From NCBI GenBank assembly GCA_030754595.1, contig JASLZZ010000034.1, forward strand, positions 1 to 64,000: 64,000 bases of DNA. Direction: 5' to 3'. Shown here in pieces: positions 299 through 52,016 of the stretch. This stretch comes from Nitrospinota bacterium (lineage in GTDB: Bacteria; UBA8248). Each line of letters begins with the position of its first letter. Position 1 is the first letter of the stretch. A program made the position numbers and the translations under genes. Under the pieces are notes generated by a model. It ran no database searches, was not told the origin of the DNA, and saw only the letters and a program-made list of their open reading frames with translations.

Positions 299-1540
299 CT
301 ACAGGGCCGCCGCGCGGAGCATGACCTCGTCGAGGAGCGCACGGTGGGCTCCGCAGCCGACCACCCGCTTCCTCGTTTCCTGAAGGCGGGCGAGGTGGCC
401 CTCCTCCGAGTAGGAGGAGGGCCCCGATTTCGAGTAGGAGGAGGGGCCGCCCGCGTAGCGGTCCCGCATCAAACCGATGCGCCCGAAGGATTCCTCTTCC
501 TCGCGGGCCGTGATTTCCTCCTCGCGAATCGCCCGTGAAATTCCCTCGTGCGCCCGTTCCTGGGCCTCCTCGGAGCGGCAGATGAGGGCGATGTCCGCCC
601 CCGCCCGCAAACCGGCCGCCGCCGCCGCCGCCGGGTCCTCGATCGCCCCCATTTCCAGATCGTCGGTGACGACCACCCCGCCGAAGCAGAGCTCGCCTCG
701 AAGTAGCTCTTTTATCAAACGCGGAGAGAGGCTCGCGGGCCGTTCCGGGTCGATGCGCTCGAACACCGCATGGGCCACCATCACGCTAGCCGCCCCACCG
801 GGGATGGTTGCCCCACCGGGGATGGTTGCCCCGCCGGGGATAGTTGCCCCATCGGGGATGGTTGCCCCACCGGGGATGGCTGCCCCGCTGGAGACGGCCG
901 CGCGGAAGGGAACAAGCTCTCTGCCGCGCAGGTCATCGAGCGAGAGCCCGCTCGAGGGAAGCGTCTCGTGCGGATCGGGGGCCATGTCGCCGATTCCGGG
1001 AAAGTGCTTGGCCGCCGCGGCCACCCCGCCCGCCTGAAGGCCGGCAATCACCGCGGCGCCCATCGTAGCGACGGCTCCCGCCTCCTCCCCGTAGGCGCGG
1101 TTTCCGATAACCGTACAGGCCGGGTTCGTCAAAATATCGAGCACCGGCGCGAAATTCCAGTTGACCCCCACGGCGCGAAGCTCGGCCGCCGCCGCGCCCG
1201 CGCACCTGCGGGCGAGATCGGGATCGCCGATTCGCCCTATAACACGCGCGGCGGGGAAGAGAGTGAAATCTGGGGAAACGCGGCTCACCCGGCCGCCCTC
1301 CTGATCGATGCCGATCAGCAGGGGCGCCCTGCGGAGAGATTCCGCAGCCGCGCACTGAAGAGAGTGAGTGAGTTCGAGGGCCTGCCCGGCGCTCTCGATG
1401 TTCCGCGAGAAGAGGATCACGCCTCCGGCCCGGCCCGCCCGGATTCGCTCGAGCAGATTGGGCGGGGCGGCCGCACCCTCGAAACCGGCCATGATGTGGG
1501 CGCCGGCCTTGATCTCGGGCGGCCAGTCTCTATAGGGCAC
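299..1540 (-). CDS. nagZ: Beta-N-acetylhexosaminidase, GH3 (NagZ-like), with internal repeat expansion
   Basis: Motifs GGVILFSRN, IDQEGGRVSR, NFAPVLD, KHFPG, VTDDLEMGAI. The canonical KHFPGHG...D(S/T)H reads KHFPGIGDMAPDPH here. Confidence 0.85.
   Translation of the reverse strand: MPYRDWPPEIKAGAHIMAGFEGAAAPPNLLERIRAGRAGGVILFSRNIESAGQALELTHSLQCAAAESLRRAPLLIGIDQEGGRVSRVSPDFTLFPAARVIGRIGDPDLARRCAGAAAAELRAVGVNWNFAPVLDILTNPACTVIGNRAYGEEAGAVATMGAAVIAGLQAGGVAAAAKHFPGIGDMAPDPHETLPSSGLSLDDLRGRELVPFRAAVSSGAAIPGGATIPDGATIPGGATIPGGATIPGGAASVMVAHAVFERIDPERPASLSPRLIKELLRGELCFGGVVVTDDLEMGAIEDPAAAAAAGLRAGADIALICRSEEAQERAHEGISRAIREEEITAREEEESFGRIGLMRDRYAGGPSSYSKSGPSSYSEEGHLARLQETRKRVVGCGAHRALLDEVMLRAAAL
792..886. 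repeat. 18-bp tandem repeat, about 5.3 copies (gccccaccggggatggtt), encoding GATIPG repeats in nagZ
   Basis: Units start at 792, 810, 828, 846 and 864. Confidence 0.95.
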
Positions 1541-1561
1541 GGTGGCCGGCTCCCGGTGCGG

Positions 1562-2248
1562 CTAGCGCAGCCGCTTGATGGTGAAGTTCTCGGCCATCGG
1601 GAGCCCGACGACGGCCCCGGCCTCCTCCGCGCGGATGCGCACCCGTCTTTCCGTATCGCGCGGGTTGTGAATCTGGCTCTTGTGGGCGTTGATGGATTTA
1701 ATCTTTTTTCCGATGGTCTCCGAGATATCGACGAAAAAATTCGGCTCGTTCGAGCGCGTGTAGATCAGCGTGTTCGTGTGGTGGGCCTCGATGCCCGCGT
1801 AGGTCAGCTCGGGCAGGAAGTGATGATCGCGCGCGTAGATGACCCCCTTGAAGGCGGCGTGGCCCACGGCCTGATGGTCGGGGTGTGAGTAATGACCCAG
1901 CCAGGGGTCGTGCATGACAACGGTGTCGGGCTTGAGGTGGCGAATGAGGAAAGCGATCTGGTTCCTGAAGGCCCGCGTGTCCTCGAGCTCGCCGTCGCGG
2001 TGCCGGAGGAAAATCGTATCCTTCACGCCCAGCACTTTCGAGGCCGCGAGCTGTTCCCTCTCGCGGGTCTCGGTGAGCTTGTAGGGGGGGATGTCTTTCT
2101 TCGTTCCCTTGTCGCCGTTAGTGCATATGACGGTGTGGACGGCGCCGCCGTCCTCGGTCCACTTGGCGATGCTTCCGCCCACCCCGAGTTCGGCGTCGTC
2201 GTGGTGGGCGACCACCACCATGATGTTTTTGAACTCCGATCGAATCAA
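1562..2248 (-). CDS. PIG-L/LmbE-family N-acetylglucosaminyl deacetylase (MshB/BshB-like)
   Basis: VVAHHDDAE, TNGDKG, REREQLAAS and HPDH motifs. Confidence 0.88.
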   Translation of the reverse strand: MIRSEFKNIMVVVAHHDDAELGVGGSIAKWTEDGGAVHTVICTNGDKGTKKDIPPYKLTETREREQLAASKVLGVKDTIFLRHRDGELEDTRAFRNQIAFLIRHLKPDTVVMHDPWLGHYSHPDHQAVGHAAFKGVIYARDHHFLPELTYAGIEAHHTNTLIYTRSNEPNFFVDISETIGKKIKSINAHKSQIHNPRDTERRVRIRAEEAGAVVGLPMAENFTIKRLR

Positions 2249-2272
2249 GATTTTCTCCTAAAGAAAAATTTT

Positions 2273-3649
2273 TCAGCCCGAAACCGGCGAAACGCGCCGG
2301 GGACTGTCCTTTTTATCCGGCTCCCCGGCCCTTAGCCGAAGAAGTTTTCTCCAAACCTCGGTTTCCCTCTTGGCGGCGGAGCGCCACGAGAAGTCCCGCG
2401 CCCGCTCCCGCGCCCGTGCGGCCAGCCGCGCCCTTGTCTCGGGTGAGGTGATGATATTCAGAGCCGCCCCGGCGAAGGCCATGATATCACCCTCGGGGAC
2501 GAGGTGGCCGCTTCCCCCCGTCTCGATGGCGCCCGAGAGCCCCCCAACGTCGAAGGCCACGGCGGGCAGCCCGCAGGCCGCCGCCTCGAGCGCGACGAGC
2601 CCGAAGGTTTCGTAGCGCGAGGGTATCGCCAGCACGTCGGCCGCCGAGTAGTAGGCGCGAAGCTCCTCCTGGCTCCTGGCGCCGTGGAAGCGAAAGCTTC
2701 CGGCGAGGTTCGCCTCTCCCGCCAATCCGAGGATTCGGGCTACCTCCCCCCGCTGAGCGGGAGAATTGAAATCGCCTGGAACGAGACCATTAGCCGTTTG
2801 CCCGCTCCCCGCTTGAGGCTCTCTTCCCGCCTCCCCTCCGGCGTGAATGACGCTCACCGAAATATCCGGCCGCATCTCCCGGATGGCCTCGAGCGCCCGG
2901 ACCAGCCGGTCAAGGCCCTTGATCGGCTCAATCCGGCCCACGCTGAGGATGACCCGTTCCCTCTCGCCCAGACCGAGCATTTTCTTTGCCCGGGCGCGGG
3001 GAAGGGGGGAGAAACGCTCCGAATCGACGCCGCAAGGGATAACGTCAATTTTCCCTCTTTCCGAGCCGAGCATCCCGGCCAGGTCGTCCGCCTCGGCTTC
3101 CGATGAGGCGACGAGCGCGTCCGCCCGCCGGGCGATCCCCTCCTCGGCGATCATCCGCCCGCCGCTTTCTTTTCCGCCGTCTCCGGGAAGAGAGCCGTTT
3201 TTCCGGGCCGCGATAGTGTGGAACCTGTGCACCAGAGGGACCCCCCAGGCGCCGGCAAGCTCCTGCCCGGCGAGGGCGGATAGCCAGTAGTGAGAGGAGA
3301 TGAGTCCGTATCTTTCGCCTTGCTCATCGGCGAATCGGCGGATGCCCGAGGCGAACTCCCCGGTGAAGGGGGTTTGATGGTTCTTGTCGAGCGGCTTGCG
3401 CGGCCCGGCCGGTATCCGGATTAGGCGCGCCCCCGGCGAAAGCTCGGCGATTTCGGGCGATTCGTCGCCAGGCCGCGGGCCGCCGGTGGCGCGTGTGAAC
3501 ACATCGGCCCGGACCCCCAGCGAGGGTAGGGCCCTGGCGATCTCCCGGACATAGACGTTCATCCCCCCGGTGACATCCCCGCCCAGCGGTCCCGCCGGGT
3601 CGGTGTGCATCGACAATAGCGCGGCGCTGAGCCAGTAGCGCTCGGTCAT
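2273..3649 (-). CDS. GT4 glycosyltransferase, MshA-like
   Basis: SMHTDPAGPLGGDVTGGMNVYV, SHYWLS, VGRIEPIKG and ETFGLVALEA closely resemble the mycothiol MshA signature. Confidence 0.85.
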   Translation of the reverse strand: MTERYWLSAALLSMHTDPAGPLGGDVTGGMNVYVREIARALPSLGVRADVFTRATGGPRPGDESPEIAELSPGARLIRIPAGPRKPLDKNHQTPFTGEFASGIRRFADEQGERYGLISSHYWLSALAGQELAGAWGVPLVHRFHTIAARKNGSLPGDGGKESGGRMIAEEGIARRADALVASSEAEADDLAGMLGSERGKIDVIPCGVDSERFSPLPRARAKKMLGLGERERVILSVGRIEPIKGLDRLVRALEAIREMRPDISVSVIHAGGEAGREPQAGSGQTANGLVPGDFNSPAQRGEVARILGLAGEANLAGSFRFHGARSQEELRAYYSAADVLAIPSRYETFGLVALEAAACGLPAVAFDVGGLSGAIETGGSGHLVPEGDIMAFAGAALNIITSPETRARLAARARERARDFSWRSAAKRETEVWRKLLRLRAGEPDKKDSPRRVSPVSG

Positions 3650-4770
3650 GCGCCCTCCCGCGTCATGCGCCCTGGCCGCGCCAGCCGCTCTGGCCGCTCC
3701 AGCCGGATCAGGCGGATGCCCTCGTCCCTGGCCGCGTAGCGGTATTTGTAGGGTTCATCCCCGCGCAGCAAGTCGAACGAGGCGCGGCCGGCCTGAATGG
3801 CCTGCTCGATGTTCTGGCCAAGAAGGACGAGGCCCGCGCTGAGTTCGCGCTCCCCCGGGTCGAAGCCCGAGTTGTAGAGATAGATTCGGTCCCCGTAGTC
3901 AAGCGAGAAATTCGCGGCAACGGGATGCCCGTCCACGCGCATGAAACTGAGGTCGAGCCATCCGAGGGCGAGCATTTCCTTCGCCATCTCCCTGAAAAAA
4001 GCGCTGCGCGAGGGGTTCCAGAATTCCGCCTTCTCGGGCTGGCTGAGTTCGTGGAGTCGGACGAAATCATCGAGGTCGGCTTCGAGTTCTTTTTCCGAGA
4101 GGGTGCGCCCGAACTCCAGCCCCGGCTCCATGTTCGCCTTGCGGATTTTCCGGCGGAGTTCGCGCTCATCACGCTGGCCAAGCATCCCGGTGTAATCATC
4201 CCAGGAGCCGGGAAGGGGGATCACCGGGCAGACGTTTTCGGCCTCGATGGTGGCGCCACCACCATGGGTGCCGCCGCCGGCCGCGCCGCCGGCCGCTTCG
4301 AAAAAGGCCACTGTCGGCGAAGCGCCGGGGACGCTGTGCAGGGCCAGCTCTTTCCACGCGGGGGCGTCCGGGCTGTTCAGGTATCCGAGCAGCGCCCGCC
4401 AGGCGTCCTCGTGGGCGCCGTCCCGCGCGACGATATCGAGATAGTCGGTGAGGTCCTCGCCGCCGACGAAGCGCATCAGCCCGTCCTCCCGAAGGGTGAG
4501 GGGGGCGATGGCGATCAGGGGCCCGCCCTCCGGGCCCACCGTGCAAATGTGGAGCTCGCCCGAGCCGAGATGCTTCCACCAGGTGGAGTGCCAGACGGGA
4601 TCGTAGAATGGGTGCGAATGAGAGCTGGCCTCCATGAGCGCGCGCCACTCCGGGGCCAGCCGGTCAATATCGCCGGGTGTGGCATAGACGCAGACTTGTA
4701 GGGGCTCCTTCCCCTCCGGCGAGGAAGTCACGACGTAACACGAAGAAGGCGCGGAGCACGAAGAGGTCAT
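3646..4770 (-). CDS. GNAT-family acyltransferase (CelD/BcsL, Acetyltransf_6 type)
   Basis: TDYLD, YLYNSGFDP and FDLLRGDEPYKYR; ATG at 4770 preceded by GGAGAG; stop overlaps the next start. Confidence 0.8.
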   Translation of the reverse strand: MTSSCSAPSSCYVVTSSPEGKEPLQVCVYATPGDIDRLAPEWRALMEASSHSHPFYDPVWHSTWWKHLGSGELHICTVGPEGGPLIAIAPLTLREDGLMRFVGGEDLTDYLDIVARDGAHEDAWRALLGYLNSPDAPAWKELALHSVPGASPTVAFFEAAGGAAGGGTHGGGATIEAENVCPVIPLPGSWDDYTGMLGQRDERELRRKIRKANMEPGLEFGRTLSEKELEADLDDFVRLHELSQPEKAEFWNPSRSAFFREMAKEMLALGWLDLSFMRVDGHPVAANFSLDYGDRIYLYNSGFDPGERELSAGLVLLGQNIEQAIQAGRASFDLLRGDEPYKYRYAARDEGIRLIRLERPERLARPGRMTREGA

Positions 4771-4867
4771 TAGCTCTCCATCAAACCTGTTGCGGGCGGC
4801 GGAAATCCACAGCCCGGAGAAACCCACAGATACTAAGTTGACGTATTTCGGGCGTCAAATCCGCGGG

Positions 4868-5452
4868 CTAAAGAGGGACGAACACCGCCGATTCGTGGCC
4901 GTCGAGGGGGGGCTGCAGCCGGGGGGTGCCGAATCCCAGTACCGTGGTCATGAGAAGTTTCTGGAAAAGGGTGAAGCCCGCCTTCGTCACCCCCCGGATC
5001 GAAGGCATATTTCTGGCCTCGACGAAAATGATCGAGCGCACCAAGTCGAGTTTCCCGCCGAATTCCAGCGCTCGCTGGAGGACGGAGGGGTAGAGGTTCT
5101 GCCCCCGAAAGGGCTCGATCGTGAACGCGTCGTAGAGATATATGTCCGTCGGCGCGATGTCGACGGCCATCATGATTTCATCGACGTCGACCTTGCCCCG
5201 CGAGCCCCAGACGTAGCTGACCACATGGCCTTCGTGTTTCGCGACGAAGCAAACCTCGTCCCGGCCGAACCGGATTTTCGTCAGGCGCTCGCCCTGCACT
5301 TCCTCGATCAGTTTCCGGTTCGGCGAGTCGCCGTTCAGAGTTTCGAAGCTGGTCTCGATGCGGGCCTCGTTTCGCAAAATTTCGACCGGATAGACGAAGT
5401 CGTATAGACCGAGCTCAATCGGGTTGTAGATAAAAGAGGGCCATCCGCTCAA
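4868..5452 (-). CDS. GNAT-family N-acetyltransferase
   Basis: YLYDAFTIEPFRGQNLY (acetyl-CoA motif A) and NMPSIRGVTKAGF; overlaps the upstream stop. Confidence 0.75.
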   Translation of the reverse strand: MSGWPSFIYNPIELGLYDFVYPVEILRNEARIETSFETLNGDSPNRKLIEEVQGERLTKIRFGRDEVCFVAKHEGHVVSYVWGSRGKVDVDEIMMAVDIAPTDIYLYDAFTIEPFRGQNLYPSVLQRALEFGGKLDLVRSIIFVEARNMPSIRGVTKAGFTLFQKLLMTTVLGFGTPRLQPPLDGHESAVFVPL

Positions 5453-6558
5453 TGAACCGTCTCCTTTTCCATTTCCTCAAGAGCGCAGATATAGGGTTCG
5501 AGCAGCGCCGCGAATTCGCTCCACTCCGGGAGGGCTGCGAGATGGCGGCGGACGTGGGCCGCCGTGAGTGAGATATGGCGAAGGTAGCGCGGGTTTCCGC
5601 GCTCGGTTTTCTGATAGGCGAAGGTCCCGATGGCTTTGAGGTTTCGCTGAAGCCCAGTGAGACAAAGCGCGCGGCCGAACGCCGCGGGGTCCGGGAACAA
5701 GTCCTCCGCGCCCGATTCGGCCCTGAATTGCGCCACGAGCGCCATTCGCCCCTCCTCTGGGAGAGGGACATAGCTGTCGAAGACCAGGGAGGCGAGATCG
5801 TAGGTCAGAGGGCCGAGGCGGGCGTCCTGAAAATCGAGGACGAGCAGCCCCGCCGGATCCGCGAGCCCCGCCGGCTCCCCGGTTGAATATTCTCCCCGCG
5901 CCATGAGGTTCCGGCTGTGATAGTCGCGGTGGGTGAGGGCGTAGGGCAGCGTGCAAAGCTCGCCGGCCAGCGCGGCGAAGGGGGGGCCAAACTCAGCCTC
6001 GGGGGCGGGGAGGCCGCATAGCCTCTCGAAGGCGCAGCGGCGGGTCATGTGGAGTTCGCGCATGAAAAGCGCCTCGTCAAATCCGTAGCTGAGCGCCAGC
6101 CGATCCTGTTGCTCCGGTCCTGCGTTCTCTACGGGCGCCCTCCGGAGGGCGGCGAGCAGGCGGATAGCCTCCTCGTAAAAGGGCCGAGCCGCCTCCCATC
6201 CGCCCGCGTTCCACACCTCCTCGAGCGTCCGGTCTCCGGCGTCCTCGAGGAGCAATAAACCGCCCCCGGGGTCGGCCGCGTATATCTCGGGAACGGGGAG
6301 GCCGATCACCCGGAAGTGGGCCTGAACGTTGATGAAGGGAAGCTCTTTTTTATCGAACGGGGAGGCGAGAATCATGCCGACCGAGGACGTGGCCGTCCCG
6401 CCAAGGATGGCTGCCCCGCCGGGGTGGCGGAGGCGGACATAAGAGCGTTCCGAGGCGTCCCCCGCGAGCGGGTCGGCCCCGGCCACCTCGGCCCCGAAAT
6501 AATTTACTGCCATCTCTTTCAGGCGCGTTAGCGCCTCGCGCGGAATTTCCCCGGTCAT
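5449..6558 (-). CDS. APH-fold phosphotransferase, AmgK-like anomeric MurNAc/GlcNAc kinase
   Basis: LAGDASERSYVR, HRDYHSRNLM, LDFQDARLGP, YDLASL and QRNLKAIGTF. Confidence 0.82.
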   Translation of the reverse strand: MTGEIPREALTRLKEMAVNYFGAEVAGADPLAGDASERSYVRLRHPGGAAILGGTATSSVGMILASPFDKKELPFINVQAHFRVIGLPVPEIYAADPGGGLLLLEDAGDRTLEEVWNAGGWEAARPFYEEAIRLLAALRRAPVENAGPEQQDRLALSYGFDEALFMRELHMTRRCAFERLCGLPAPEAEFGPPFAALAGELCTLPYALTHRDYHSRNLMARGEYSTGEPAGLADPAGLLVLDFQDARLGPLTYDLASLVFDSYVPLPEEGRMALVAQFRAESGAEDLFPDPAAFGRALCLTGLQRNLKAIGTFAYQKTERGNPRYLRHISLTAAHVRRHLAALPEWSEFAALLEPYICALEEMEKETVH

Positions 6559-7394
6559 GCGGGCCTCCCCGGCAGTGGGGCGCTCCGGTCCAGCTCGTCG
6601 AGAATATCGGCGTAGGCGGCGCCCTCGGGGCGGCGAAGCTCGAAGGTAAGCGGCCCCTCGTAGGCGGCCTCCTCGAGCGCCCGCCAGAGGGCGGCGAAGG
6701 GGATACCGCCCGCCCCCGGAATCAGATGCCCGTCGCTCTCTCCGTCGTTGTCGTGCAGATGGGTGGCGGCGGCGAGCGGCGCGAGCCGCCCGAAGGCCTC
6801 CCCGGCGCCCTCCCCCTCGGTGAGGAAGGCGTGGCCGGCGTCGATGCAGGCCCGCACTCGGGGGTGATCGATCCGCTCGATGAGGGTTTTAATCTGATCG
6901 GCCCCCCCGAGCGGGGCCGGGATGTTTTCGATGGCGAGCGTCATATCCAGATGCTCGGCGACGGGGATAAGCCGTTCGATGCTCTGGCGAAAGCCGTCGG
7001 GGTGGTCCGTGGCGCCGGCCGCCCCGGGGGCCGAGGGGTGGAGGATGGCGATCCGCGCGCCGAGGCCGCCCATGGCGACCAGCGAGGCAAGAGTCTGATT
7101 TATGGCTTCGAGGCGCCGCTCGGGGTCCATGTCGGCGAGGGAGAGCCACCTCCCGGCGCGGGCCTGGTCCAGGCTGGCGTAAAACGGAGCGTGGAAGCTC
7201 GCCGGCTCAAGAGAGAGCTCCTTCAACCAGCCTTCCAGCCGCGACACCGTTCCGGGGTCGGCGCAGGGGAGATTCGGAATCATGGCCCAGAGCTCGACCC
7301 GAGCGTATCCGGCCTCGGACACCGCCCGAAGGTGGTCGAAAGTCAGTGGTTCGTAAGCGAAAAGGTGGGCCGACACACTCGGAAATGGGGGCAA
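6555..7394 (-). CDS. Sugar phosphate isomerase/epimerase (xylose-isomerase-like TIM barrel)
   Basis: LAIEN, CIDAGH, HLHDNDGESDGHLIPGAG and LTFE metal motifs. Confidence 0.82.
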   Translation of the reverse strand: MPPFPSVSAHLFAYEPLTFDHLRAVSEAGYARVELWAMIPNLPCADPGTVSRLEGWLKELSLEPASFHAPFYASLDQARAGRWLSLADMDPERRLEAINQTLASLVAMGGLGARIAILHPSAPGAAGATDHPDGFRQSIERLIPVAEHLDMTLAIENIPAPLGGADQIKTLIERIDHPRVRACIDAGHAFLTEGEGAGEAFGRLAPLAAATHLHDNDGESDGHLIPGAGGIPFAALWRALEEAAYEGPLTFELRRPEGAAYADILDELDRSAPLPGRPA

Positions 7395-7635
7395 GAAATA
7401 TCCTTTGTCGTTGATGGGGCGGAAAAAACCCCCTTTAGCCCATTATACGGCCCCGCCACTAGCGGGAACAACGGGTCCCCGGCAACGCGAAAAAATGAGC
7501 GCTCCCGGCCTTTGGGGTATACATTGGAATCAGCCTTCCCGACCACAGCGGCTTGTATCTCAGGCCAGTTTCTAAAAGGGACGATGTCGCCCCCAACGGA
7601 GCGTGAGCGTATTCCGCGGAAAATCCCGGGATATG

Positions 7636-7681
7636 TTGACACTTGGGAGCTTTTCATAGTATTGGTCAGACCACCAGACCA
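7636..7681 (+). promoter_or_regulatory. Sigma70-like promoter with FadR/PdhR-type operator
   Basis: TTGACA at 7636-7641, -10-like tagtat near 7657, palindrome TGGTC-a-GACCA at 7663-7673, upstream of a FadR-family gene. Confidence 0.6.
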
Positions 7682-7776
7682 GAAGCGGCCCGTTTTGAAG
7701 TTGATTTTTAGCTAAGGCCGCCGGGGATTTCGCCCGGCCTGCCGCCGGGATATGAGCCCGGCCCGGAGGTGAATTC

Positions 7777-8595
7777 TTGCTCCGCCCAATCAAAAAAACG
7801 CGCCTCTACGAAGGCGTCGTCTCCCAAATCGAACACTTGATCCGGACGAAGAAACTCTCTCCGGGCGACCGGCTTCCCTCCGAGCGCGAACTCGCCACCA
7901 CCCTCGGCATCGGGCGCGCCTCGGTCCGCGAGGCGCTCCGCACCCTCGACAGCACAGGTCTCATCGATGTGCGGAGCGGCCAAGGGGCCTTCCTCCGAAA
8001 CCTCAGCGTCGATCCCTACCTCGCCTCAATCCGCGAGAGCCTCTCGTTCCTGCTCGATGTCCGCGAGGAGACCCTGCTCGAGCTCTGGGAGGTGCGCCAG
8101 GGCCTCGAGGAGCAGATCGCCTCCCACGCCGCCGGCCGGCGCAGTGCATCGGATGTCGAGTCGCTTCGCGCCCTGACCGGGGAGATGAGAGGCGGCAAGG
8201 CCTCGCCGGAGGTGTTCGTCCGCGCGGGAATCGCCTTTCACCGCAAGCTCGCAGAGGCGGCGGGGAACACCGTCATCCTCACCCTTTGGGAGGCCATCGC
8301 CGGCCTCATCGAAAAGAGCCAGCGGCGCATCATCGGCATCCCCGGCCAGCCCGACGAGGCTCTCGCCAAGCACGAGGCGCTCCTCGCCGCCGTCGAGGCG
8401 GGCGATTCTAACCGCGCGCTCGGGGCGATGCGCGAGCACATGGAAAAAGAGGGAGACCATCTTCGGGAGGCGCTGGTGGCCGCGGGGTATCCGGCCCGCC
8501 CGGCGGCGGCTCCCGTTTCGACAGGAGAAGTGAGTGCCGATAAAGGCGTTCGGAAGATAAAAAAAGGAGAGGGGAAAACAAAAAAAACGGCTTAG
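7777..8595 (+). CDS. FadR/GntR-family transcriptional regulator (FCD domain)
   Basis: PGDRLPSERELATTLGIGRASVREAL helix-turn-helix; FHRKLAEAAGN and MREH in the FCD domain. Confidence 0.93.
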   Translation: MLRPIKKTRLYEGVVSQIEHLIRTKKLSPGDRLPSERELATTLGIGRASVREALRTLDSTGLIDVRSGQGAFLRNLSVDPYLASIRESLSFLLDVREETLLELWEVRQGLEEQIASHAAGRRSASDVESLRALTGEMRGGKASPEVFVRAGIAFHRKLAEAAGNTVILTLWEAIAGLIEKSQRRIIGIPGQPDEALAKHEALLAAVEAGDSNRALGAMREHMEKEGDHLREALVAAGYPARPAAAPVSTGEVSADKGVRKIKKGEGKTKKTA

Positions 8596-8701: not shown

Positions 8702-10042
8702 ATGGTGGACCTCAGCAAACAGGGAATGCCGATGGATTTCTTGCAGCGGGAGCACTACCAGTCGCCCCGCCGCGTGTTCAGCCAGACGGGCAGCGACTGG
8801 CAGCGCCGGGTCGATTTCGACCAGATGCGCAAGGATCGCCTGCAGCGCGCCAAGGACATGATGGAAAAACACGACATGGATGCCGTCATCATGTTCAAGG
8901 GCGAGAACATCCGCTACACCTGCTCGGTCTTTCAGGGCAACTGGAAGAACAATATCTTCATCCGCTACGCGGTCCTCTGTCGCGGCGCCGAGACGCCCGT
9001 ACTCTTCGAGACGGCGGGCTCGGACTACGAGTGCGCCCGCATCGACGCCCCTTGGCTCAAGGGCAACATCCGGCCCGCCATCACCTGGAAATGGTCCGAG
9101 ACGGCCGAGCAGATGATGGTCAACCGCATGGTCGATTCGGTCATCGACGTTCTAAAGGAGGGCGGCGTCGATCTGAACGGCCGAATCGGCATCGACATCA
9201 TGGATTTCCAGGCCTACAGCGCTTTCACCGAAAAGGGCGTGAACCTGGTCAACGCCTGGCCGGCGATGAGCGAGGCCCGCGTCATCAAGACGCCCGAGGA
9301 GATCGAGTGCCTCAAAATCAGCTCGACCATCGGCGACACCTGTATGTGGAAAATCCGCCACGAGTGGCTCAAGCCCGGCATCCGCGAGTGCGACCTCACG
9401 GCCTGGGTGAACAACCTGCTCTACGAGGAAGGCTTCGACTTCGTTTATGACATCATCGTCGCCTCGGGCGGCAACACCAGCCCCTACCGGCGCTGGCACA
9501 CCGACAAGATGATCCGCGACGGCGACCTCGTCATCGTGGACATCAACGCCATCGGTCCAGGCGGCTACTTCGTCGACTACGTGCGCTGCTTCAAGTGCGG
9601 CGGCGACTGGACGAAGACCGAAAAAGCGCTCTACCGCGAGGTGTACGACTCGATGTACGCCGGCCTCGTCAATCTCAAGCCCGGACAGACGACCAAGGAC
9701 GTGGCTTCCCAGTTCCCCGTGTACGCCGACGACAAGTACGGCACCGTCACGCTCCAGCAGTTCGCCCACTCCATCGGCCTCGACCTTTACGAGGGCATGT
9801 GGATCAGCCGGGCCTACAGCCTCGACTACCCCGTCGAGATCAAGGAAAATATGTACTTCGCCATCGAGACCTTCGCCGGCCATCCGGGCCTGCCGCAGAC
9901 GGTTCGCCTCGAGGAGAACGTCCTCGTCGGTCCCGACGGCCCGATCATCTTCACCGGCATGCAGCACTACGACGAGTGCATCGAGGATTCGCCGTACTTC
10001 GACTTCTCGCACAAGTCTCGCGGCGAGGCGCGTTACGAGTAA
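8702..10042 (+). CDS. M24 (Xaa-Pro peptidase/creatinase/DddP-like) family metalloenzyme
   Basis: N-terminal creatinase-like domain (ENIRY), ARVIKTPEEI, and metal ligands D..D (VDINAIGPGGYFVDYVR), H (AHSIG), E (AIET), E (LEEN); RBS AAGGAGGAG. Confidence 0.85.
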   Translation: MVDLSKQGMPMDFLQREHYQSPRRVFSQTGSDWQRRVDFDQMRKDRLQRAKDMMEKHDMDAVIMFKGENIRYTCSVFQGNWKNNIFIRYAVLCRGAETPVLFETAGSDYECARIDAPWLKGNIRPAITWKWSETAEQMMVNRMVDSVIDVLKEGGVDLNGRIGIDIMDFQAYSAFTEKGVNLVNAWPAMSEARVIKTPEEIECLKISSTIGDTCMWKIRHEWLKPGIRECDLTAWVNNLLYEEGFDFVYDIIVASGGNTSPYRRWHTDKMIRDGDLVIVDINAIGPGGYFVDYVRCFKCGGDWTKTEKALYREVYDSMYAGLVNLKPGQTTKDVASQFPVYADDKYGTVTLQQFAHSIGLDLYEGMWISRAYSLDYPVEIKENMYFAIETFAGHPGLPQTVRLEENVLVGPDGPIIFTGMQHYDECIEDSPYFDFSHKSRGEARYE

Positions 10043-16782: not shown

Positions 16783-18060
16783 TTAGATTTCGGGGTCTTC
16801 TTCGGGGTCTTTCCAGGAACCTGCCTCGGGCTCGATATGGAATTTTAGCTGTGCGTGCGCTCGGCGAAGCGCCCCCTCGGCCTCGGCGGGCGTTTCGCCG
16901 CCGGCGAAGATGAAACCGAGGTAGCGGTTGCCCTCGGGGAGGGGGACGACGAGCCCGCCCGTTTGAATGCTGATATCGATCGATCGGACCCCCGGAACCT
17001 CGAGCGCCTCCTCCATTCCCTCGACCCCGCGCAGAATGCCCCGCCCCGGAATCGGGATCATCATCACCCCCGAGGCCGCGCCCGCCCGGAAGATGGCGGG
17101 CGGCTCCCTCCCCAGCGCGCGGGCGATGATCAGCTCCTCGAGGCTCGCGCCCTCTCCGAATTCCAGCGCCCCCGAGCATTTGCCCCCGATGGTGCGGCTC
17201 GCGATGTCGATCACCCACACCCCGTCATCGTTCACCCGGACCTCCGCGTGCACCGGCCCGTCGCGCAGGCCGATGGCTTTCGCGGCGCGGTCCACGGCCC
17301 GGATGATTTCCGCCTGCGTTTTTTCGGGCAGACGCGAGGGCGTCACGTAAATCGTTTCCTCGAAAAACGGCCCCTCCATCGGGTTGGGCTTATCAAAAAT
17401 GGCGAGGACATGGAGTGCGCCGCCCGCGACGAGGCCTTCGAGCGCCGCTTCCCGGCCGGGGATGTAGTCCTCGACGAGGATTGAGCCGGCCTCGGCGCCG
17501 CCGCGCTCTTTCGTGTCGGCTTCCTCCAGGATTTTTCCGATCCGACGGTAGGCGGCGGAGAATTCCGCCTCGCTGTTCGCGCGGATGACGCCCTGGCTCC
17601 CCGCGAGGAAGGTGGGCTTGAGTACGCAGGGATATCCGAGCGAGCGGGCGATGGGCGCCGGGTCCTCCCCCGCCGCGACGAGCCGGAACCCCGGAGAGGG
17701 CAGCCCCTCCTCGTCGAGAATTTTCCTGAGCTCGTACTTGCTCCGGGTGGCCCGCGCGCCCTCGACGGTGTGCGCGGGCAGGCCGAGCGCCTGCGCCGCC
17801 ATCGCTCCGGCGATCACGGTGTCATCGTCCACCGCGATCACGGCGTCGAGGGGATGCTCCCGGGCGAAGGTCTCGATGTCCCCGGCCGCTTTTTCGGGCG
17901 CGTGAAAATCGAGGACCAACGAGCCGCCCGGAGTCAGGCCGGCGAGCGCGTCCGGCCGGTCGGTCCCCACAACGGACAGCACCCCGGCCCGCTCCGCCGC
18001 CACGAGATAGGCCGAGGCGCGGTAGGTGTTCACCGTCATCAGGAGTAGAACGCGCTTCAC
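16783..18060 (-). CDS. ATP-grasp domain protein (L-amino-acid-ligase-like)
   Basis: SKYELRKIL, YPCVLKP, GSQGVIR, LVEDYIPGRE, HAEVR and IDIASRTIGG. Confidence 0.87.
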   Translation of the reverse strand: MKRVLLLMTVNTYRASAYLVAAERAGVLSVVGTDRPDALAGLTPGGSLVLDFHAPEKAAGDIETFAREHPLDAVIAVDDDTVIAGAMAAQALGLPAHTVEGARATRSKYELRKILDEEGLPSPGFRLVAAGEDPAPIARSLGYPCVLKPTFLAGSQGVIRANSEAEFSAAYRRIGKILEEADTKERGGAEAGSILVEDYIPGREAALEGLVAGGALHVLAIFDKPNPMEGPFFEETIYVTPSRLPEKTQAEIIRAVDRAAKAIGLRDGPVHAEVRVNDDGVWVIDIASRTIGGKCSGALEFGEGASLEELIIARALGREPPAIFRAGAASGVMMIPIPGRGILRGVEGMEEALEVPGVRSIDISIQTGGLVVPLPEGNRYLGFIFAGGETPAEAEGALRRAHAQLKFHIEPEAGSWKDPEEDPEI

Positions 18061-44947: not shown

Positions 44948-46138
44948 CTAAACGCGGGATGTCAGATGCGCTAAGTGAGCAGCCCATCCGGAGGCGAAAC
45001 GCTCCCGAGCGGCATTTTTGAATCGCAGACGACCAAATTTCCCTGCCTGCCGTCTCGCCGCTTCGGGGCGAAAAACGCCTTCCTTTTTCTCAAACTCGAG
45101 AACCGCTTCAACCAACGACTCGGGGGTCGGCTCCCTGAAAAAAAGGCCAGTTGGCTCTCCCGGATTATCATCCCCTTCCCCCCAGGCGGGAAACCCCGGA
45201 GGAGGAGCGAATTTATCGCGGTTCGCCGCCACCACGGTTTCAAGCGCCCCGCCCTCTCCCAGGGCAATGACAGGCCTTCCCGAGGCCTGCGCCTCAAGCG
45301 AGGTAATTCCGAAGTCCTCGACCCCGGGAAAAATAAACGCCCGGCAGCCGGCATAGAGCTCGGCGAGGGTTGAATCGTCCTGCCACCCGAGAAACTCCAC
45401 ATTGGACTTTCCAATCCCCCGTACCCTCTCGAAATCCTGACCGTGCCCCACCACCTTAAGAGGACGCCCCAGGCGATTGAACGCCTCAACAGCCACATCA
45501 ACCCTCTTGTAGGGAGCAAAAGCCGAGACCACGAGGTAGTATTCCCCCGCCCTGGAACCGGGGCAAAATCGGTCCGTGTCGACCGGCGGGTAAAGTATGT
45601 CCGCCTCCCGGCCGTAGTGGCAGCGGATGCGGTTGGCTACCGTGTGGCTGATCGCCACGAATTCATTCACGCCGCTGTTGGACTCCCGGTCCCACCCGCG
45701 AAGGTAGGCCATCGCCCAGGGGAGGACCCACTTGAGGGGCCTTCCCACCCGGCCACCGCTGAAATACTCATCGTAGGCCGACCATGCATACCTCATCGGG
45801 GTATAGCAGTAACATAGATGAAAGGCGTCCTCCCTGCCCCGGGCGCCCTTCGCCACACAATGGCTGCTCGAGAGGATGAAATCGTATCCCGAAAGGTCAA
45901 ACATCCGGATGGCCGAGGGCATTAGCGGAAGAAAATACCGGTATTTCTTCTCGACGCCCGGCATATGCTGAATCGGGCTGGTATGAATGGGGTGGTTTTC
46001 AATTATCTTCGAGACCGAATCCGGCACATGAAGGAGGGTAAAAATGTCAGCCTCAGGATATATCTCGCAAAACACCTCGAGGCACTTCTCCCCCCCGCGC
46101 ATCCCCGTCAGCCAGTCGTGAACTATTGCAATCCGCAT
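44948..46138 (-). CDS. GT4 glycosyltransferase
   Basis: HDWLTGMRGGEK, YCYTPMRY and EDFGITSLEAQASG. Confidence 0.9.
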   Translation of the reverse strand: MRIAIVHDWLTGMRGGEKCLEVFCEIYPEADIFTLLHVPDSVSKIIENHPIHTSPIQHMPGVEKKYRYFLPLMPSAIRMFDLSGYDFILSSSHCVAKGARGREDAFHLCYCYTPMRYAWSAYDEYFSGGRVGRPLKWVLPWAMAYLRGWDRESNSGVNEFVAISHTVANRIRCHYGREADILYPPVDTDRFCPGSRAGEYYLVVSAFAPYKRVDVAVEAFNRLGRPLKVVGHGQDFERVRGIGKSNVEFLGWQDDSTLAELYAGCRAFIFPGVEDFGITSLEAQASGRPVIALGEGGALETVVAANRDKFAPPPGFPAWGEGDDNPGEPTGLFFREPTPESLVEAVLEFEKKEGVFRPEAARRQAGKFGRLRFKNAARERFASGWAAHLAHLTSRV

Positions 46139-46953
46139 TAATTTTTTCCCGCCCCGGGAGGCGTAATCGGCATTCCCTCTCCCGCCTGCGGCCCGCCCTT
46201 TCGCATGACAATGACGGCATACCTGCAGTAGCGCTGAAGCCAGGGGAACACCCGGAGAAGTATCCTGTCGATCACCTCAAGCAAATCGATTAGCACCTTC
46301 CACCTGAACAGGCGGCGAATCATCGAGAAAAGCTGATACCCCCGCATCTCAATCCAGGGGAAATTCTTTCTGAGAGTTTCGATATCCTTTTGGCGAATGG
46401 GCTCCTCGTCCTCCGTTCGGTCCTTTCCCCGGTAGGGGATTCTTTTCCGGACAAATTCGAGAATCGGGTTCCCCCCCCAGGGCTCGCTGAAAACAGCGAT
46501 GCCGCCGGGCCGGAGCACACGCGCCATTTCCTTTCCCGCTAGTTCCAAATCGACATGATGAAGAACCGCATTTCCGTAAATGGCGTCGAACGATTCGTCC
46601 CGGTACCCGAGAGACTCGCCGGCCATCTCCTGAAGATGAACGCGTCCGCCCACCCCGTTCGCGTACGCGCGGCGGGCCGAGAGGACTGCATTGCCAAAAG
46701 CGATATCAAACGCAAAAACATCCCCCTTGAGACGGGCCAGAACCGTGGCGCTCATTCCGTCCCCCGTCCCATAGTCGAGCACCCGTTTTCCCTGGAGATC
46801 GCCTAAAAGCTCGAAAGTGTCCCGGACCCAGCTCTCATGGTCTACGTATACCGAATCCTCGAAGTAAAGCGTCTCATCGGCAAGCGCCTCTCCACGAAGG
46901 GAGCTTCTCTTCTCATAGAAATCCCGTTCCCGGTGAAGACGGTCGTTGCTCAC
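46138..46953 (-). CDS. Class I SAM-dependent methyltransferase
   Basis: VLDYGTGDG, FDAIYGNAVLHH and RVLRPGG; GTG start overlapping the upstream stop. Confidence 0.85.
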   Translation of the reverse strand: MSNDRLHRERDFYEKRSSLRGEALADETLYFEDSVYVDHESWVRDTFELLGDLQGKRVLDYGTGDGMSATVLARLKGDVFAFDIAFGNAVLSARRAYANGVGGRVHLQEMAGESLGYRDESFDAIYGNAVLHHVDLELAGKEMARVLRPGGIAVFSEPWGGNPILEFVRKRIPYRGKDRTEDEEPIRQKDIETLRKNFPWIEMRGYQLFSMIRRLFRWKVLIDLLEVIDRILLRVFPWLQRYCRYAVIVMRKGGPQAGEGMPITPPGAGKN

Positions 46954-48071
46954 GTCCCGCCCCCCGAAGCGGCGGCATTGTTGCGGTTTTCCGGCAAGGC
47001 ATCCCGGTAGGCTTTCAGGGTTTCCTCGGCCAAAGCGCGCCAGGAGAATTTTCGCGCCTGCTTCCGGGCCTTCAAGGATAGACTGGCACGAAGCGAATCG
47101 TCCTCGAGCAGGCGGACCATGGCCTCCCGAAGCGGCTCCACACACCCTTCGGGGACGACGATCCCCGCCTCTCCCACCACTTCGGGCAAAGATGCTACAT
47201 CGGAGACAATCGCCGGAGTTCCGCAACCCATCGCCTCCAGCGGCGGGTAGCCGAACCCCTCATAGCTTGAGGGGAAAACAAGGGCCCTCGCGGCGGCGTA
47301 AATGCCCTCAAGAGCTTCGTGCGGGACATCTCCAAGAAACTCCACCTCGCCGCCGAGACCGCGCCGGGCCATCTCATCCTTCAATCCGTCCCCACTGCCC
47401 GTCAGCAGAAGCCGCACCCCGCTCATCCGGCGGCGGACCCCCGCGAACGCCTCGAGGAGCAGCGGGATATTCTTGTGTTTTTTATGATTGCCAACATAAA
47501 GAAAAAAAGGGTCCCCCGCCTTCAATCCGGGGAACGATTCTCTTTGTCCTTCCTCTCCCCAACCCGGAGGAAGCGCGTTATAGGTAAGACGAACCTTGTC
47601 GGGAGCCACCCCCAGATGTTTTATGATGTCGCGCCGTGAATGCTCCGATACCGTCAGGATAATCCGGGCACGGCCGGCGGTCCGCTTCGCCAGGAGCCGC
47701 GATACCCGCCAAGCCAATTTGGAAGGACACTGCTCGGGAAAAAGCTGGTGAATCAAATCGTGAATCGTCGCTACCATCGGAGTGCGCCCGAACATAGGAG
47801 CGGCGTAGTGAGGATGATGAACGAGATCGAGATTTTGAGCCTCCACCAACCGCGCAAGTCCCACCTGCTCGGAAAGTGAATATGGCCGCACTCTCGAAAA
47901 AATCAAAGAAAAATTCTCGCCCGGCGGATGAAACCGCTCCCGATCGCCGTCATGTATAATAACGACGTATTCATGGTCTTCGCCCAGGCGGCGCAGACCT
48001 TCAATCAAATTTCTCAAGTAGGTACCGATACCACTCATGAAAATCATGCGGGCATCAATGCCTATCCGCAT
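46950..48071 (-). CDS. GT4 glycosyltransferase
   Basis: IGIDAR, TIHDL, HKN and EGFGYPPLEAMGCG. Confidence 0.9.
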   Translation of the reverse strand: MRIGIDARMIFMSGIGTYLRNLIEGLRRLGEDHEYVVIIHDGDRERFHPPGENFSLIFSRVRPYSLSEQVGLARLVEAQNLDLVHHPHYAAPMFGRTPMVATIHDLIHQLFPEQCPSKLAWRVSRLLAKRTAGRARIILTVSEHSRRDIIKHLGVAPDKVRLTYNALPPGWGEEGQRESFPGLKAGDPFFLYVGNHKKHKNIPLLLEAFAGVRRRMSGVRLLLTGSGDGLKDEMARRGLGGEVEFLGDVPHEALEGIYAAARALVFPSSYEGFGYPPLEAMGCGTPAIVSDVASLPEVVGEAGIVVPEGCVEPLREAMVRLLEDDSLRASLSLKARKQARKFSWRALAEETLKAYRDALPENRNNAAASGGGT

Positions 48072-49405: not shown

Positions 49406-49413
49406 GATCAGAT

Positions 49414-52010: not shown

Positions 52011-52016
52011 GAGCGA

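Follow-up and report, generated by a model that had tools for sequence, protein, structure and literature searches.

Positions 299 to 7,394 of a 64,000-nucleotide DNA stretch from a Nitrospinota bacterium (GTDB lineage UBA8248; GenBank assembly GCA_030754595.1, contig JASLZZ010000034.1, positions 1 to 64,000), which as a whole is called the window below, carry seven minus-strand open reading frames (ORFs) in which an MshA-like glycosyltransferase and a Fem-like double-GNAT transferase lie together with enzymes of the cell-wall recycling type. The source assembly comprises 3.55 Mb in 138 contigs with a completeness of 96.9%. An earlier reading made from the letters alone (the sequence-only reading) had described seven co-directional genes, several with overlapping stop and start codons, and all of these ORFs were recovered, with 4-nt overlaps at three junctions (TIM/KIN, KIN/GNAT and FEM/GT) and gaps of 21–97 nt between the remaining genes. 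The genes of the operon, listed from first to last, and the adjoining features are as follows.

6555..7394, minus strand: TIM, AP_endonuc_2 TIM-barrel protein of 279 aa, first gene (PF01261, 110.9 bits)
5449..6558, minus strand: KIN, APH-family AmgK-like sugar kinase of 369 aa (PF01636, 55.8 bits)
4868..5452, minus strand: GNAT, small GNAT acyltransferase of 194 aa (PF00583, 23.5 bits against a cut-off of 20.7)
3646..4770, minus strand: FEM, Fem-like double-GNAT transferase of 374 aa from the ATG at 4770, in an ORF open to 4827 (PF13480, 109.6 bits)
2273..3649, minus strand: GT, MshA-like retaining GT4 glycosyltransferase of 458 aa (TIGR03449, 315.5 bits)
1562..2248, minus strand: PIGL, PIG-L/LmbE-family de-N-acetylase of 228 aa (PF02585, 110.5 bits)
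299..1540, minus strand: NAGZ, GH3 beta-N-acetylhexosaminidase NagZ of 413 aa, last gene (NF003740, 215.9 bits; PF00933, 218 bits)
7395..7776, no strand: intergenic region between operon and regulator, presumed from its position to hold divergent promoters or an operator
7777..8595, plus strand: GntR/FCD-family regulator, divergent from the operon (PF00392 and PF07729)

Pfam and NCBIfam upheld the domain calls made earlier from the letters (APH/AmgK, GNAT, Acetyltransf_6, GT4/MshA, PIG-L and NagZ). Since the relatives of FEM are 339–374 aa long and begin at an internal Met, its start is most likely the ATG at 4770 (374 aa) and not 4827. Neither a membrane segment nor a typical hydrophobic stretch was found in any of the seven operon proteins.

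Conservation of the operon and its core

Gene order was found to be kept across the window's phylum, which was represented by 51 species genomes of one class in our genome collection. Locus L001 (GT identity 88%) and loci L002–L010 (∼50%) repeat the order of all seven genes together with the divergent regulator. The divergent GntR gene is 70–95% identical in L001–L010 and also lies beside the operon in L197 and L201–L216. Because the operon order and the GntR gene recur at a GT identity of ∼50%, the arrangement is not due to chance. The nearest loci sit in metagenome-assembled genomes (MAGs) labelled 'ODZ_NOB7a', Nitrospinota, Nitrospinaceae or Tectomicrobia. The full order TIM-KIN-GNAT-FEM-GT-PIGL-NagZ was found in the window's own family and in a second family of the same taxonomic order; the contig from a third family of this order starts at FEM and shows FEM-GT-PIGL-NagZ. 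The other taxonomic order of the phylum carries KIN-GNAT-FEM-GT-PIGL without TIM and NagZ. In this variant an M28 peptidase gene precedes in four loci (L190, L192, L196 and L199), and a membrane PAP2 phosphatase gene followed by tatA comes after PIGL in three of four loci (L190, L192 and L199, the last being the same as L108); tblastn found no homologue of this PAP2 protein in the window's genome. Two small genomes of the phylum have FEM-GT-PIGL only.

Members of the FEM family were detected in 48 of the 51 genomes of the phylum and in all 29 high-quality ones, and this near-universal presence fits a housekeeping function and not an accessory cluster. In a FEM-centred profile scan with one genome per species, the 80 best loci spanned the window's phylum, Dehalococcoidia and Anaerolineae, Methylomirabilota/Rokubacteria, Tectomicrobia/Entotheonellaceae and Thermodesulfobacteriota. 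Of these loci, 66 carry an MshA-like GT directly downstream of FEM (64 of the 72 whose sequence reaches far enough), 42 have PIGL within 5 kb, 21 a small GNAT upstream of FEM and 18 a kinase. The other neighbours of the FEM-GT pair vary widely among phyla, and NagZ and TIM are missing from the FEM-GT locus in one order of the window's phylum and in all other phyla. FEM-GT-PIGL is the universal core of the locus. We consider, with moderate confidence and jointly with the pathway proposed below, that the seven genes of the window form one operon of two joined modules, a core (GT, PIGL, FEM and GNAT) and a salvage part (NagZ, KIN and TIM). At one Syntrophaceae locus, a gene of the inositol-monophosphatase family adjoins GT.

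The glycosyltransferase and the Fem-like transferase

Against NCBIfam, GT scored 315.5 bits with the MshA model (TIGR03449), 100 bits with that of sucrose-phosphate synthase (SPS) and 98 bits with that of BshA (97.7 against a cut-off of 273.7), and MshA was the only NCBIfam family below 1e-50 for GT and for all 47 homologues scanned. The best PDB sequence matches of GT were Corynebacterium glutamicum MshA (224 bits) and the SPS of Thermosynechococcus (TeSPS, 195 bits), and PimA/PimB reached 51–58 bits only. The MshA equivalog cut-off of 462.5 bits was passed by none of the 47 homologues, including the Acidimicrobiia GTs (373–407 bits) that co-occur with MshC-like genes, so this cut-off is a strict one. 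Scores with the MshA model ranged over 293–315 bits in the window's phylum, 334–409 bits in Chloroflexota and others and 293–407 bits in Actinomycetota, where they were 373–407 bits apart from one aberrant Solirubrobacterales row. In a quick maximum-likelihood tree of 82 rows, which was rooted on three distant GT4 paralogues and left out BshA and SPS rows, the window's GT fell into a non-actinobacterial clade (62 rows, 91), separate from an Actinomycetota clade (17 rows, SH-aLRT 99). Rows with stops in the extended ORF (L011, L034 and L074), fragments (L040, L059, L076 and L077) and one row with an aberrant N-terminus (L061) had been dropped from this tree.

Residues N31, K89, Y121, H144, T145 and R165 of GT correspond to N25, K78, Y110, H133, T134 and R154 of C. 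glutamicum MshA, which we take to have roles in the pocket for the acceptor phosphate or inositol phosphate. The positions of N25, Y110, H133, T134 and R154 are identical in all 79 GT family members, and the position of K89 holds K or R in 72 of the 79, including 17 of 17 in the window's phylum. GT K89 and R165 also align with R105 and R178 of TeSPS, and Arg105 and Arg178 of that enzyme bind the phosphate of sucrose-6-phosphate (PMC7264703). As judged from these alignments, the pocket indicates a phosphorylated acceptor. The genome-wide search for ino1 was positive (Ino1, PF01658, 132.8 bits, contig C29), and 44 of the 50 genomes with an MshA-like GT that served as our co-occurrence sample have Ino1. 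Inositol phosphate is favoured as the acceptor because of the MshA family assignment and the presence of Ino1, and we infer that 1L-myo-inositol-1-phosphate is the most likely one.

PIGL scored 109.2 bits with the BshB1 model (cut-off 182.5) and 40.4 bits with that of MshB (TIGR03445; cut-off 224.35). GNAT matched no NCBIfam family and had no significant PDB sequence match; it is a candidate for an MshD-like final N-acylase.

FEM belongs to a single Pfam family, PF13480 (Acetyltransf_6), and does not match FemAB (PF02388); among the 120 FEM relatives listed, some carry PF04339 (FemAB_like) and one carries PF02388. No solved structure related to FEM by sequence was found in the PDB by single-sequence or profile searches. 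With the structure model of FEM (pLDDT 92, pTM 0.89), Foldseek placed FemX at the top (E 3e-12), followed by Sbb17/Sba18 solved with streptothrisamine, whose entries are named 'aminoacyl-tRNA-dependent peptide synthases', and then by MprF-type domains. In the VIA comparison, ranks 1–23 (Z 22.5–16.9) were occupied by FemX/FemA, Sbb17/Sba18, MprF-type tRNA-dependent enzymes and one protein of unknown function, with Z of 22.5–20.3 for Fem/Sbb17/Sba18 and 16.9–18.9 for the MprF aminoacyl-lipid synthase domains. Tandem GNATs that use acyl-CoA started at rank 24 with Z of at most 16.1, and MshD had Z of 15.6 and 14.1. The modelled fold suggests that FEM uses aminoacyl-tRNA as its donor. In FEM, R207, K208, R210 and K342 are invariant. 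Orf11 of the BD-12 pathway, according to a review (PMC12945691), uses Gly-tRNA to convert the amino sugar streptothrisamine into glycylthricin; since Orf11 aminoacylates an amino sugar, it is a direct precedent for the step proposed for FEM. In the window's phylum, the N-terminus of FEM carries a Ser/Cys-rich tail (M-x-S-x-C-S-x-P...) before the first GNAT domain, which is of low confidence in the model and absent from the Chloroflexota relatives.

The sequence-only reading had noted that the window holds no MshC or BshC ligase, and the search of the whole genome found neither: the best MshC match reached 280.5 bits (TIGR03447 cut-off 485.1), the level of the housekeeping cysteinyl-tRNA synthetase (CysRS), and there was no match to BshC. 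Likewise, no glutathione synthetase (GshB) over cut-off was found in the genome. With GshB and BshC not found, the organism is left without a known thiol pathway.

Among the 50 GT-bearing genomes, an MshC-like ligase (at least 387 bits) was found in 13 (387–447 bits), namely 12 Actinomycetota and one Rokubacteria MAG, and 12 of these 13 have a separate CysRS-level match. A strong FEM match (at least 288 bits) was found in 34 (288–462 bits). FEM and an MshC-like gene coincide in a single genome; both are lacking in three, and in one more FEM is split into three pieces. FEM without an MshC-like gene was also seen in a Solirubrobacterales (Actinomycetota) MAG. The three-piece FEM belongs to a Chloroflexia MAG that retains GT (genome G009, locus L014, C12:553820–554866), in which the adjacent pieces, one with an in-frame TGA, may represent a pseudogene or an assembly error. 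The sequence-only reading had proposed that the CelD-type GNAT, here FEM, could be a substitute amine acylase; this proposal gained support from the near-exclusive distribution of FEM and MshC-like ligases, the adjacency of FEM and GT and the fold nearest to aminoacyl-tRNA-dependent transferases.

Two paralogous 276-aa proteins of the window's genome with MDMPI_N and SCP2 domains (G000, contigs C82:6867–7553 and C109:58673–59368; loci L093 and L094) pass TIGR03083, whose name is 'maleylpyruvate isomerase family mycothiol-dependent enzyme' (DinB-type). This family is over cut-off in 44 of the 51 genomes of the phylum, usually with 2–5 copies, and in one of 14 control genomes, that of C. glutamicum. 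A thiol would be the favoured, though not a settled, product of the pathway.

Salvage enzymes and the TIM-barrel protein

NAGZ passes the curated NF003740 cut-off (215.9 against 207 bits), and NagZ, KIN and TIM are each single-copy in the window's genome. The only NCBIfam families matched by KIN were those of AmgK, at 73 and 66.5 bits against cut-offs of 550 and 500, neither of which was passed. In the PDB, KIN matched 3csv (90 bits), and ESM Atlas look-ups for KIN and TIM returned family-level names only. Relatives of KIN at 33–40% identity are widespread. Where loci of Nitrospira, Bdellovibrio and Magnetococcales were examined, the kinase gene is followed by one for a MurU-like nucleoside-triphosphate (NTP) transferase, which is the AmgK-MurU arrangement. 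KIN-TIM adjacency was found at L097, L102, L103, L106, L112 and ∼20 further loci (many in Acidobacteriota, also in Acidimicrobiia and a 'Nitrospinae' genome), and NTP transferase, kinase and TIM homologue occur together at an Acidobacteriota locus and in a 'Nitrospinae' genome; the MurU-like NTP transferase was noted at L112 and L103. The three genes together may make up a MurNAc salvage module, so far undescribed, whose phosphatase is not of the HAD type.

The absence of murU noted in the sequence-only reading held for the operon and the window, where no NTP transferase gene was found, but not for the genome, which has a murU-like gene at C24:11572–12606 whose product is 41% identical to the Nitrospira neighbour of the KIN homologue. 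At this locus (L187), a gamma-glutamyltranspeptidase gene and then a gene with a NAGPA (phosphodiester glycosidase) domain follow, and the murU-like gene is preceded by a metallo-beta-lactamase-fold gene, which is also the case at L103. The window's genome also has anmK (contig C121), and no HAD-type MupP was identified. Within nagZ, an 18-nt unit at 792–886 (minus strand) is repeated 5.3 times with 90% match; the repeat is in frame and encodes a (GGATIP)-like run, which splits the GH3 domain match of NAGZ into two stretches, and a second short repeat (PSSYS) was found near the C-terminus.

TIM, which the sequence-only reading had called an isomerase, gave weak NCBIfam matches to the CbiR phosphodiesterase and to Nfo (19.6 bits with the Nfo model), below all curated cut-offs. 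In an alignment of 23 TIM homologues, H68, H119, E156, D185, H188, D221, H223 and E252 were invariant and H212 nearly so. A genuine nfo was found neither in the window's genome nor in five related ones, so the annotated Escherichia coli K-12 gene was taken as the Nfo reference. The hhalign comparison of the TIM family with this endonuclease IV (probability 93.8, E 1.7e-7) paired TIM H119, E156, D185, H188, H212, D221, H223 and E252 with Nfo H109, E145, D179, H182, H216, D229, H231 and E261; the invariant H68 lies outside the aligned range, and its Nfo counterpart would be H69. We take H69, H109, E145, D179, H182, H216, D229, H231 and E261 to be the nine ligands of the three-metal site of E. 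coli Nfo, which has H, E or D at all nine of these positions. Ketose 3-epimerases have four metal ligands only. As the metal ligands of endonuclease IV appear to be kept, TIM is likelier a phosphoesterase than an isomerase, and judged by the alignment it is a probable three-metal phosphoesterase, contrary to the earlier call. The structure model of TIM (pLDDT 94.8) did not separate epimerase, isomerase and phosphoesterase in Foldseek and VIA, where superfamily members tie at Z 27–29.5; the lists were headed by ketose 3-epimerases and xylose isomerase, with no endonuclease IV among the best 50 entries. The AP endonuclease 2 superfamily includes small-molecule phosphodiesterases, of which CbiR is an example (PMC7733943).

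The step of TIM could be that of MupP (MurNAc-6-phosphate to MurNAc) before the kinase, that of MshA2 (GlcNAc-inositol phosphate to GlcNAc-inositol), or both. The variant of the other taxonomic order, without TIM but with PAP2 at the end of the operon, fits such a phosphatase slot; PAP2 is a membrane protein, so a lipid-linked reading keeps room there.

Proposed pathway, rival explanations and related systems

The computational checks named in the sequence-only reading came out in its favour: the order of the genes is conserved, MshA is by far the best curated family of GT, which lies in the sister clade of the actinobacterial MshA-like enzymes, and the genome has ino1 but neither mshC nor bshC. 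Its points in need of revision are the murU-like gene elsewhere in the genome, the phosphoesterase-like character of TIM and the scores of GT and PIGL under the curated MshA and MshB cut-offs. The explanation towards which we lean is a tRNA-dependent variant of mycothiol-type synthesis that is fed by salvage of cell-wall GlcNAc. NagZ would free GlcNAc from recycled muropeptides, KIN would make the sugar-1-phosphate and, together with GlmU, would convert GlcNAc to UDP-GlcNAc, so that salvaged GlcNAc could flow into the glycoside; AnmK, TIM, KIN and the MurU-like enzyme would take MurNAc to UDP-MurNAc. GT would couple UDP-GlcNAc to inositol-1-phosphate supplied by Ino1, a phosphatase, perhaps TIM, would dephosphorylate the GT product, and PIGL would then take off the acetyl group. 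FEM would move an amino acid from a charged tRNA, possibly Cys-tRNA, to the free glucosamine amine, which is the job of MshC; this amino acid would be cysteine if the product is a thiol. GNAT would finally acylate the new amino group, as MshD does. More tentatively, we propose a second, convergent route to mycothiol or an analogue of it, in which a Fem-type enzyme with Cys-tRNA would act on GlcN-inositol in the window's phylum, much of Chloroflexota, Methylomirabilota, Tectomicrobia and some Thermodesulfobacteriota, whereas in Actinomycetota the ligase is MshC, a CysRS paralogue that works without tRNA; in the window's lineage NagZ-freed GlcNAc would be re-used, and TIM would be a new sugar-phosphate phosphatase for the MupP and/or MshA2 step.

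Several observations weigh against the tRNA-dependent mycothiol-type explanation. No component passes the MshA, MshB, BshA or BshB equivalog cut-offs. The MshA-like call that the sequence-only reading had made for GT agrees with MshA being its only NCBIfam family below 1e-50, but GT stays under the equivalog cut-off (315.5 against 462.5 bits); its aligned pocket residues are, moreover, common to SPS and would not single out inositol. Similarly, in the earlier comparison of PIGL with MshB the PIG-L domain itself is clear (110.5 bits), but PIGL passes the curated cut-off of neither MshB nor BshB1, and its best PDB match is an archaeal diacetylchitobiose deacetylase (121 bits). The Pfam match of GNAT is marginal (23.5 against 20.7 bits), and the Q/RxxGxG/A motif was not found in it. 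The modelled Fem-like fold is no proof of tRNA use; one genome carries both FEM and an MshC-like gene, and the split between the two mostly tracks phylum boundaries, so that the genomes are not independent samples. Seven of the 51 genomes of the phylum have no TIGR03083 member over cut-off, six of which have FEM, and outside the phylum the family was detected (E ≤ 1e-12) in 7 of 28 FEM-positive genomes. In the window's genome, the searches for mycothiol-dependent formaldehyde dehydrogenase (best 298 against 513) and mycothione reductase (best 251 against 636) found none over cut-off. GntR/FCD regulators often control catabolic operons, and the PAP2 membrane phosphatase next to PIGL in the other taxonomic order could hint at a lipid-linked step.

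Among the alternatives, the one that we take most seriously, although we think it rather unlikely, keeps the same chemistry with a product other than a thiol: FEM would add another amino acid or acyl group, and these marine or sponge-associated bacteria would use the resulting N-acyl-aminoacyl-glucosaminyl-inositol as a compatible solute or for some other metabolic purpose. The sequences do not dictate which amino acid is added, glycine is the one used in the solved precedent with an amino sugar (Orf11/Sba18), mycothione reductase and mycothiol-dependent formaldehyde dehydrogenase were not found over cut-off, and TIGR03083 is missing in most FEM-positive Chloroflexota (7 of 28 have it); a thiol is nevertheless favoured by the occurrence of TIGR03083 in 44 of 51 genomes of the phylum against one of 14 controls, by GshB and BshC not being found and by the mutual replacement of FEM and MshC-like ligases from one GT-bearing genome to another. 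We regard as improbable a modification of the cell envelope in which GlcNAc would be placed on a lipid or polymer phosphate (phosphatidylinositol-like or undecaprenyl-linked), deacetylated as in the synthesis of glycosylphosphatidylinositol anchors (PIG-A/PIG-L) and aminoacylated by a Fem/MprF-like enzyme, with NagZ and the kinase serving wall turnover. None of the seven proteins has predicted membrane segments, GT is far nearer to soluble MshA (224 bits) than to PimA/PimB (51–58 bits), and the neighbours of the FEM-GT pair vary between phyla with no constant envelope gene. What speaks for it is that the fold of FEM also matches MprF domains (Z 16.9–18.9), that PAP2 follows PIGL in three of four loci of the other order, that YfhO- and PMT_2-like membrane proteins lie near the FEM-GT pair in some Chloroflexota and that three operon genes are of the cell-wall recycling type.

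If the operon served the catabolism or salvage of chitobiose or muropeptide sugars under GntR control, with GT, FEM and GNAT as mere passengers, this would account for the archaeal diacetylchitobiose deacetylases as the best solved relatives of PIGL, for NagZ and the AmgK-like kinase as salvage enzymes and for the GntR/FCD type of the divergent regulator. We consider such a role very unlikely, since FEM-GT-PIGL is the universal core and NagZ and TIM are the genes missing in one order and in all other phyla, and since a GT4 and two acyltransferases have no catabolic role. In neomycin and butirosin synthesis, MshA-/MshB-like enzymes build a pseudodisaccharide, and the pairing of GT4, PIG-L and an APH-family kinase, the last as a resistance enzyme, looks similar in the operon. 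An aminoglycoside-like secondary-metabolite cluster would, however, hardly be as widespread as FEM, which, like a housekeeping system, occurs in 48 of the phylum's 51 genomes, all 29 high-quality ones included; no aminotransferase, dehydrogenase or cyclase gene lies at the locus, and KIN relatives pair with MurU-like genes. We give this alternative the least credence of all.

The preferred tRNA-dependent mycothiol-type pathway has parallels in several known systems. With the mycothiol pathway of Actinomycetota (Ino1, MshA, MshA2 phosphatase, MshB, MshC and MshD), it shares an MshA-like GT4 with the same pocket residues, a PIG-L deacetylase, a GNAT, Ino1 and TIGR03083 enzymes. It differs in that MshC is lacking, with a Fem-like double GNAT genetically tied to GT as its candidate stand-in, that GT and PIGL are under the equivalog cut-offs and that the genes are clustered with those for NagZ, an AmgK-like kinase and a putative phosphoesterase as a single operon of a Nitrospinota-like Gram-negative host. 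The system thus resembles mycothiol synthesis, but membership fails at MshA (by cut-off and by clade), MshB and MshC, and it is best called a Fem-type variant. Bacillithiol synthesis (BshA, BshB and BshC) has the same logic of GT4, PIG-L and cysteine addition, and PIGL scores higher with BshB1 (109 bits) than with MshB (40 bits); in contrast, the BshA model gives GT 98 bits of the required 273.7, BshC is lacking and the GT pocket is of the phosphate-binding MshA/SPS type.

FEM shares the double-GNAT fold with FemX/FemA and with Orf11/Sba18/Sbb17 of the BD-12 (streptothricin-like) pathway, which are its best structural matches (Z 20.5–22.5), and the amide linkage of a tRNA-borne amino acid to an amino-sugar amine by Orf11 is the reaction proposed for FEM. 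Unlike these transferases, FEM has no detectable sequence similarity to the solved members and belongs to PF13480 and not to FemAB, and its acceptor would be a GlcN-glycoside of primary metabolism instead of a peptidoglycan precursor or an antibiotic. The Pseudomonas-type bypass of peptidoglycan recycling consists of NagZ, AnmK, MupP, AmgK and MurU. NagZ over cut-off, the AmgK-only match of KIN, KIN relatives beside MurU-like genes and the presence of anmK and a murU-like gene in the genome are in common with it, whereas the low score of KIN (73 against 550 bits), the non-adjacent murU and the fusion of the module to a glycoside-synthesis operon are not; no HAD-type MupP was identified, and the Nfo-like TIM may fill the MupP step. 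TIM itself has residues that align with eight Nfo ligands and an invariant H68 where Nfo has H69, and it gives weak HMM matches to endonuclease IV and CbiR. Its fold, however, scores at least as well for ketose 3-epimerases and xylose isomerase, and its partners are sugar kinases instead of genes for DNA repair or cobamides.

Actinomycetota are the phylum with which mycothiol is commonly identified. To our knowledge, it is not known which major small thiol is made by Chloroflexota, Nitrospinota-like lineages and other uncultured phyla, and the gene of the MshA2 phosphatase has never been identified. The genes mshABC have been claimed from genomes in Binatota in a preprint (10.1101/2020.09.14.296780). 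Full-text literature searches found no description of a Fem-type enzyme linked to mycothiol-like synthesis, and in a review of aminoacyl-tRNA-dependent enzymes the word mycothiol does not occur. If the explanation is true, the same amide bond would be made in two ways, by an aminoacyl-tRNA synthetase paralogue as ligase and by a Fem-type transferase on charged tRNA. These would be the ends of the spectrum of tRNA- and synthetase-based ligations set out in the conceptual survey by Aravind and colleagues (PMC2922099). The explanation gives a defined four-enzyme set and a candidate for the missing phosphatase of the MshA2/MupP type, would link cell-wall turnover to redox-buffer synthesis in abundant marine and sponge-associated bacteria and could be tested as the way in which several little-studied phyla make their small thiol.

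A scan of 8.7 kb for sigma-70 sites and terminators gave no excess over shuffled sequence, and no sigma-70 consensus site was found in 7395–7776. The sole sigma-70-like site of the 8.7 kb lies at 4830–4858 on the minus strand, in the gap between GNAT and FEM (TTGACG-17-TAGTAT). Shuffled sequence yields as many such sites, but FEM-GT-PIGL-nagZ could have an internal promoter here. Elsewhere in the window, a gene for an M24 (creatinase/prolidase-type) peptidase was found just downstream of the GntR gene (8702–10042, plus strand), and an ATP-grasp L-amino-acid-ligase-like gene with an LAL_C2 domain (16783–18060, minus strand) 9 kb away. Further GT4 genes on the minus strand at ∼45000–53000 gave weak matches of 24–87 bits to the MshA model, which suggest a polysaccharide cluster with apparently no relation to the operon.

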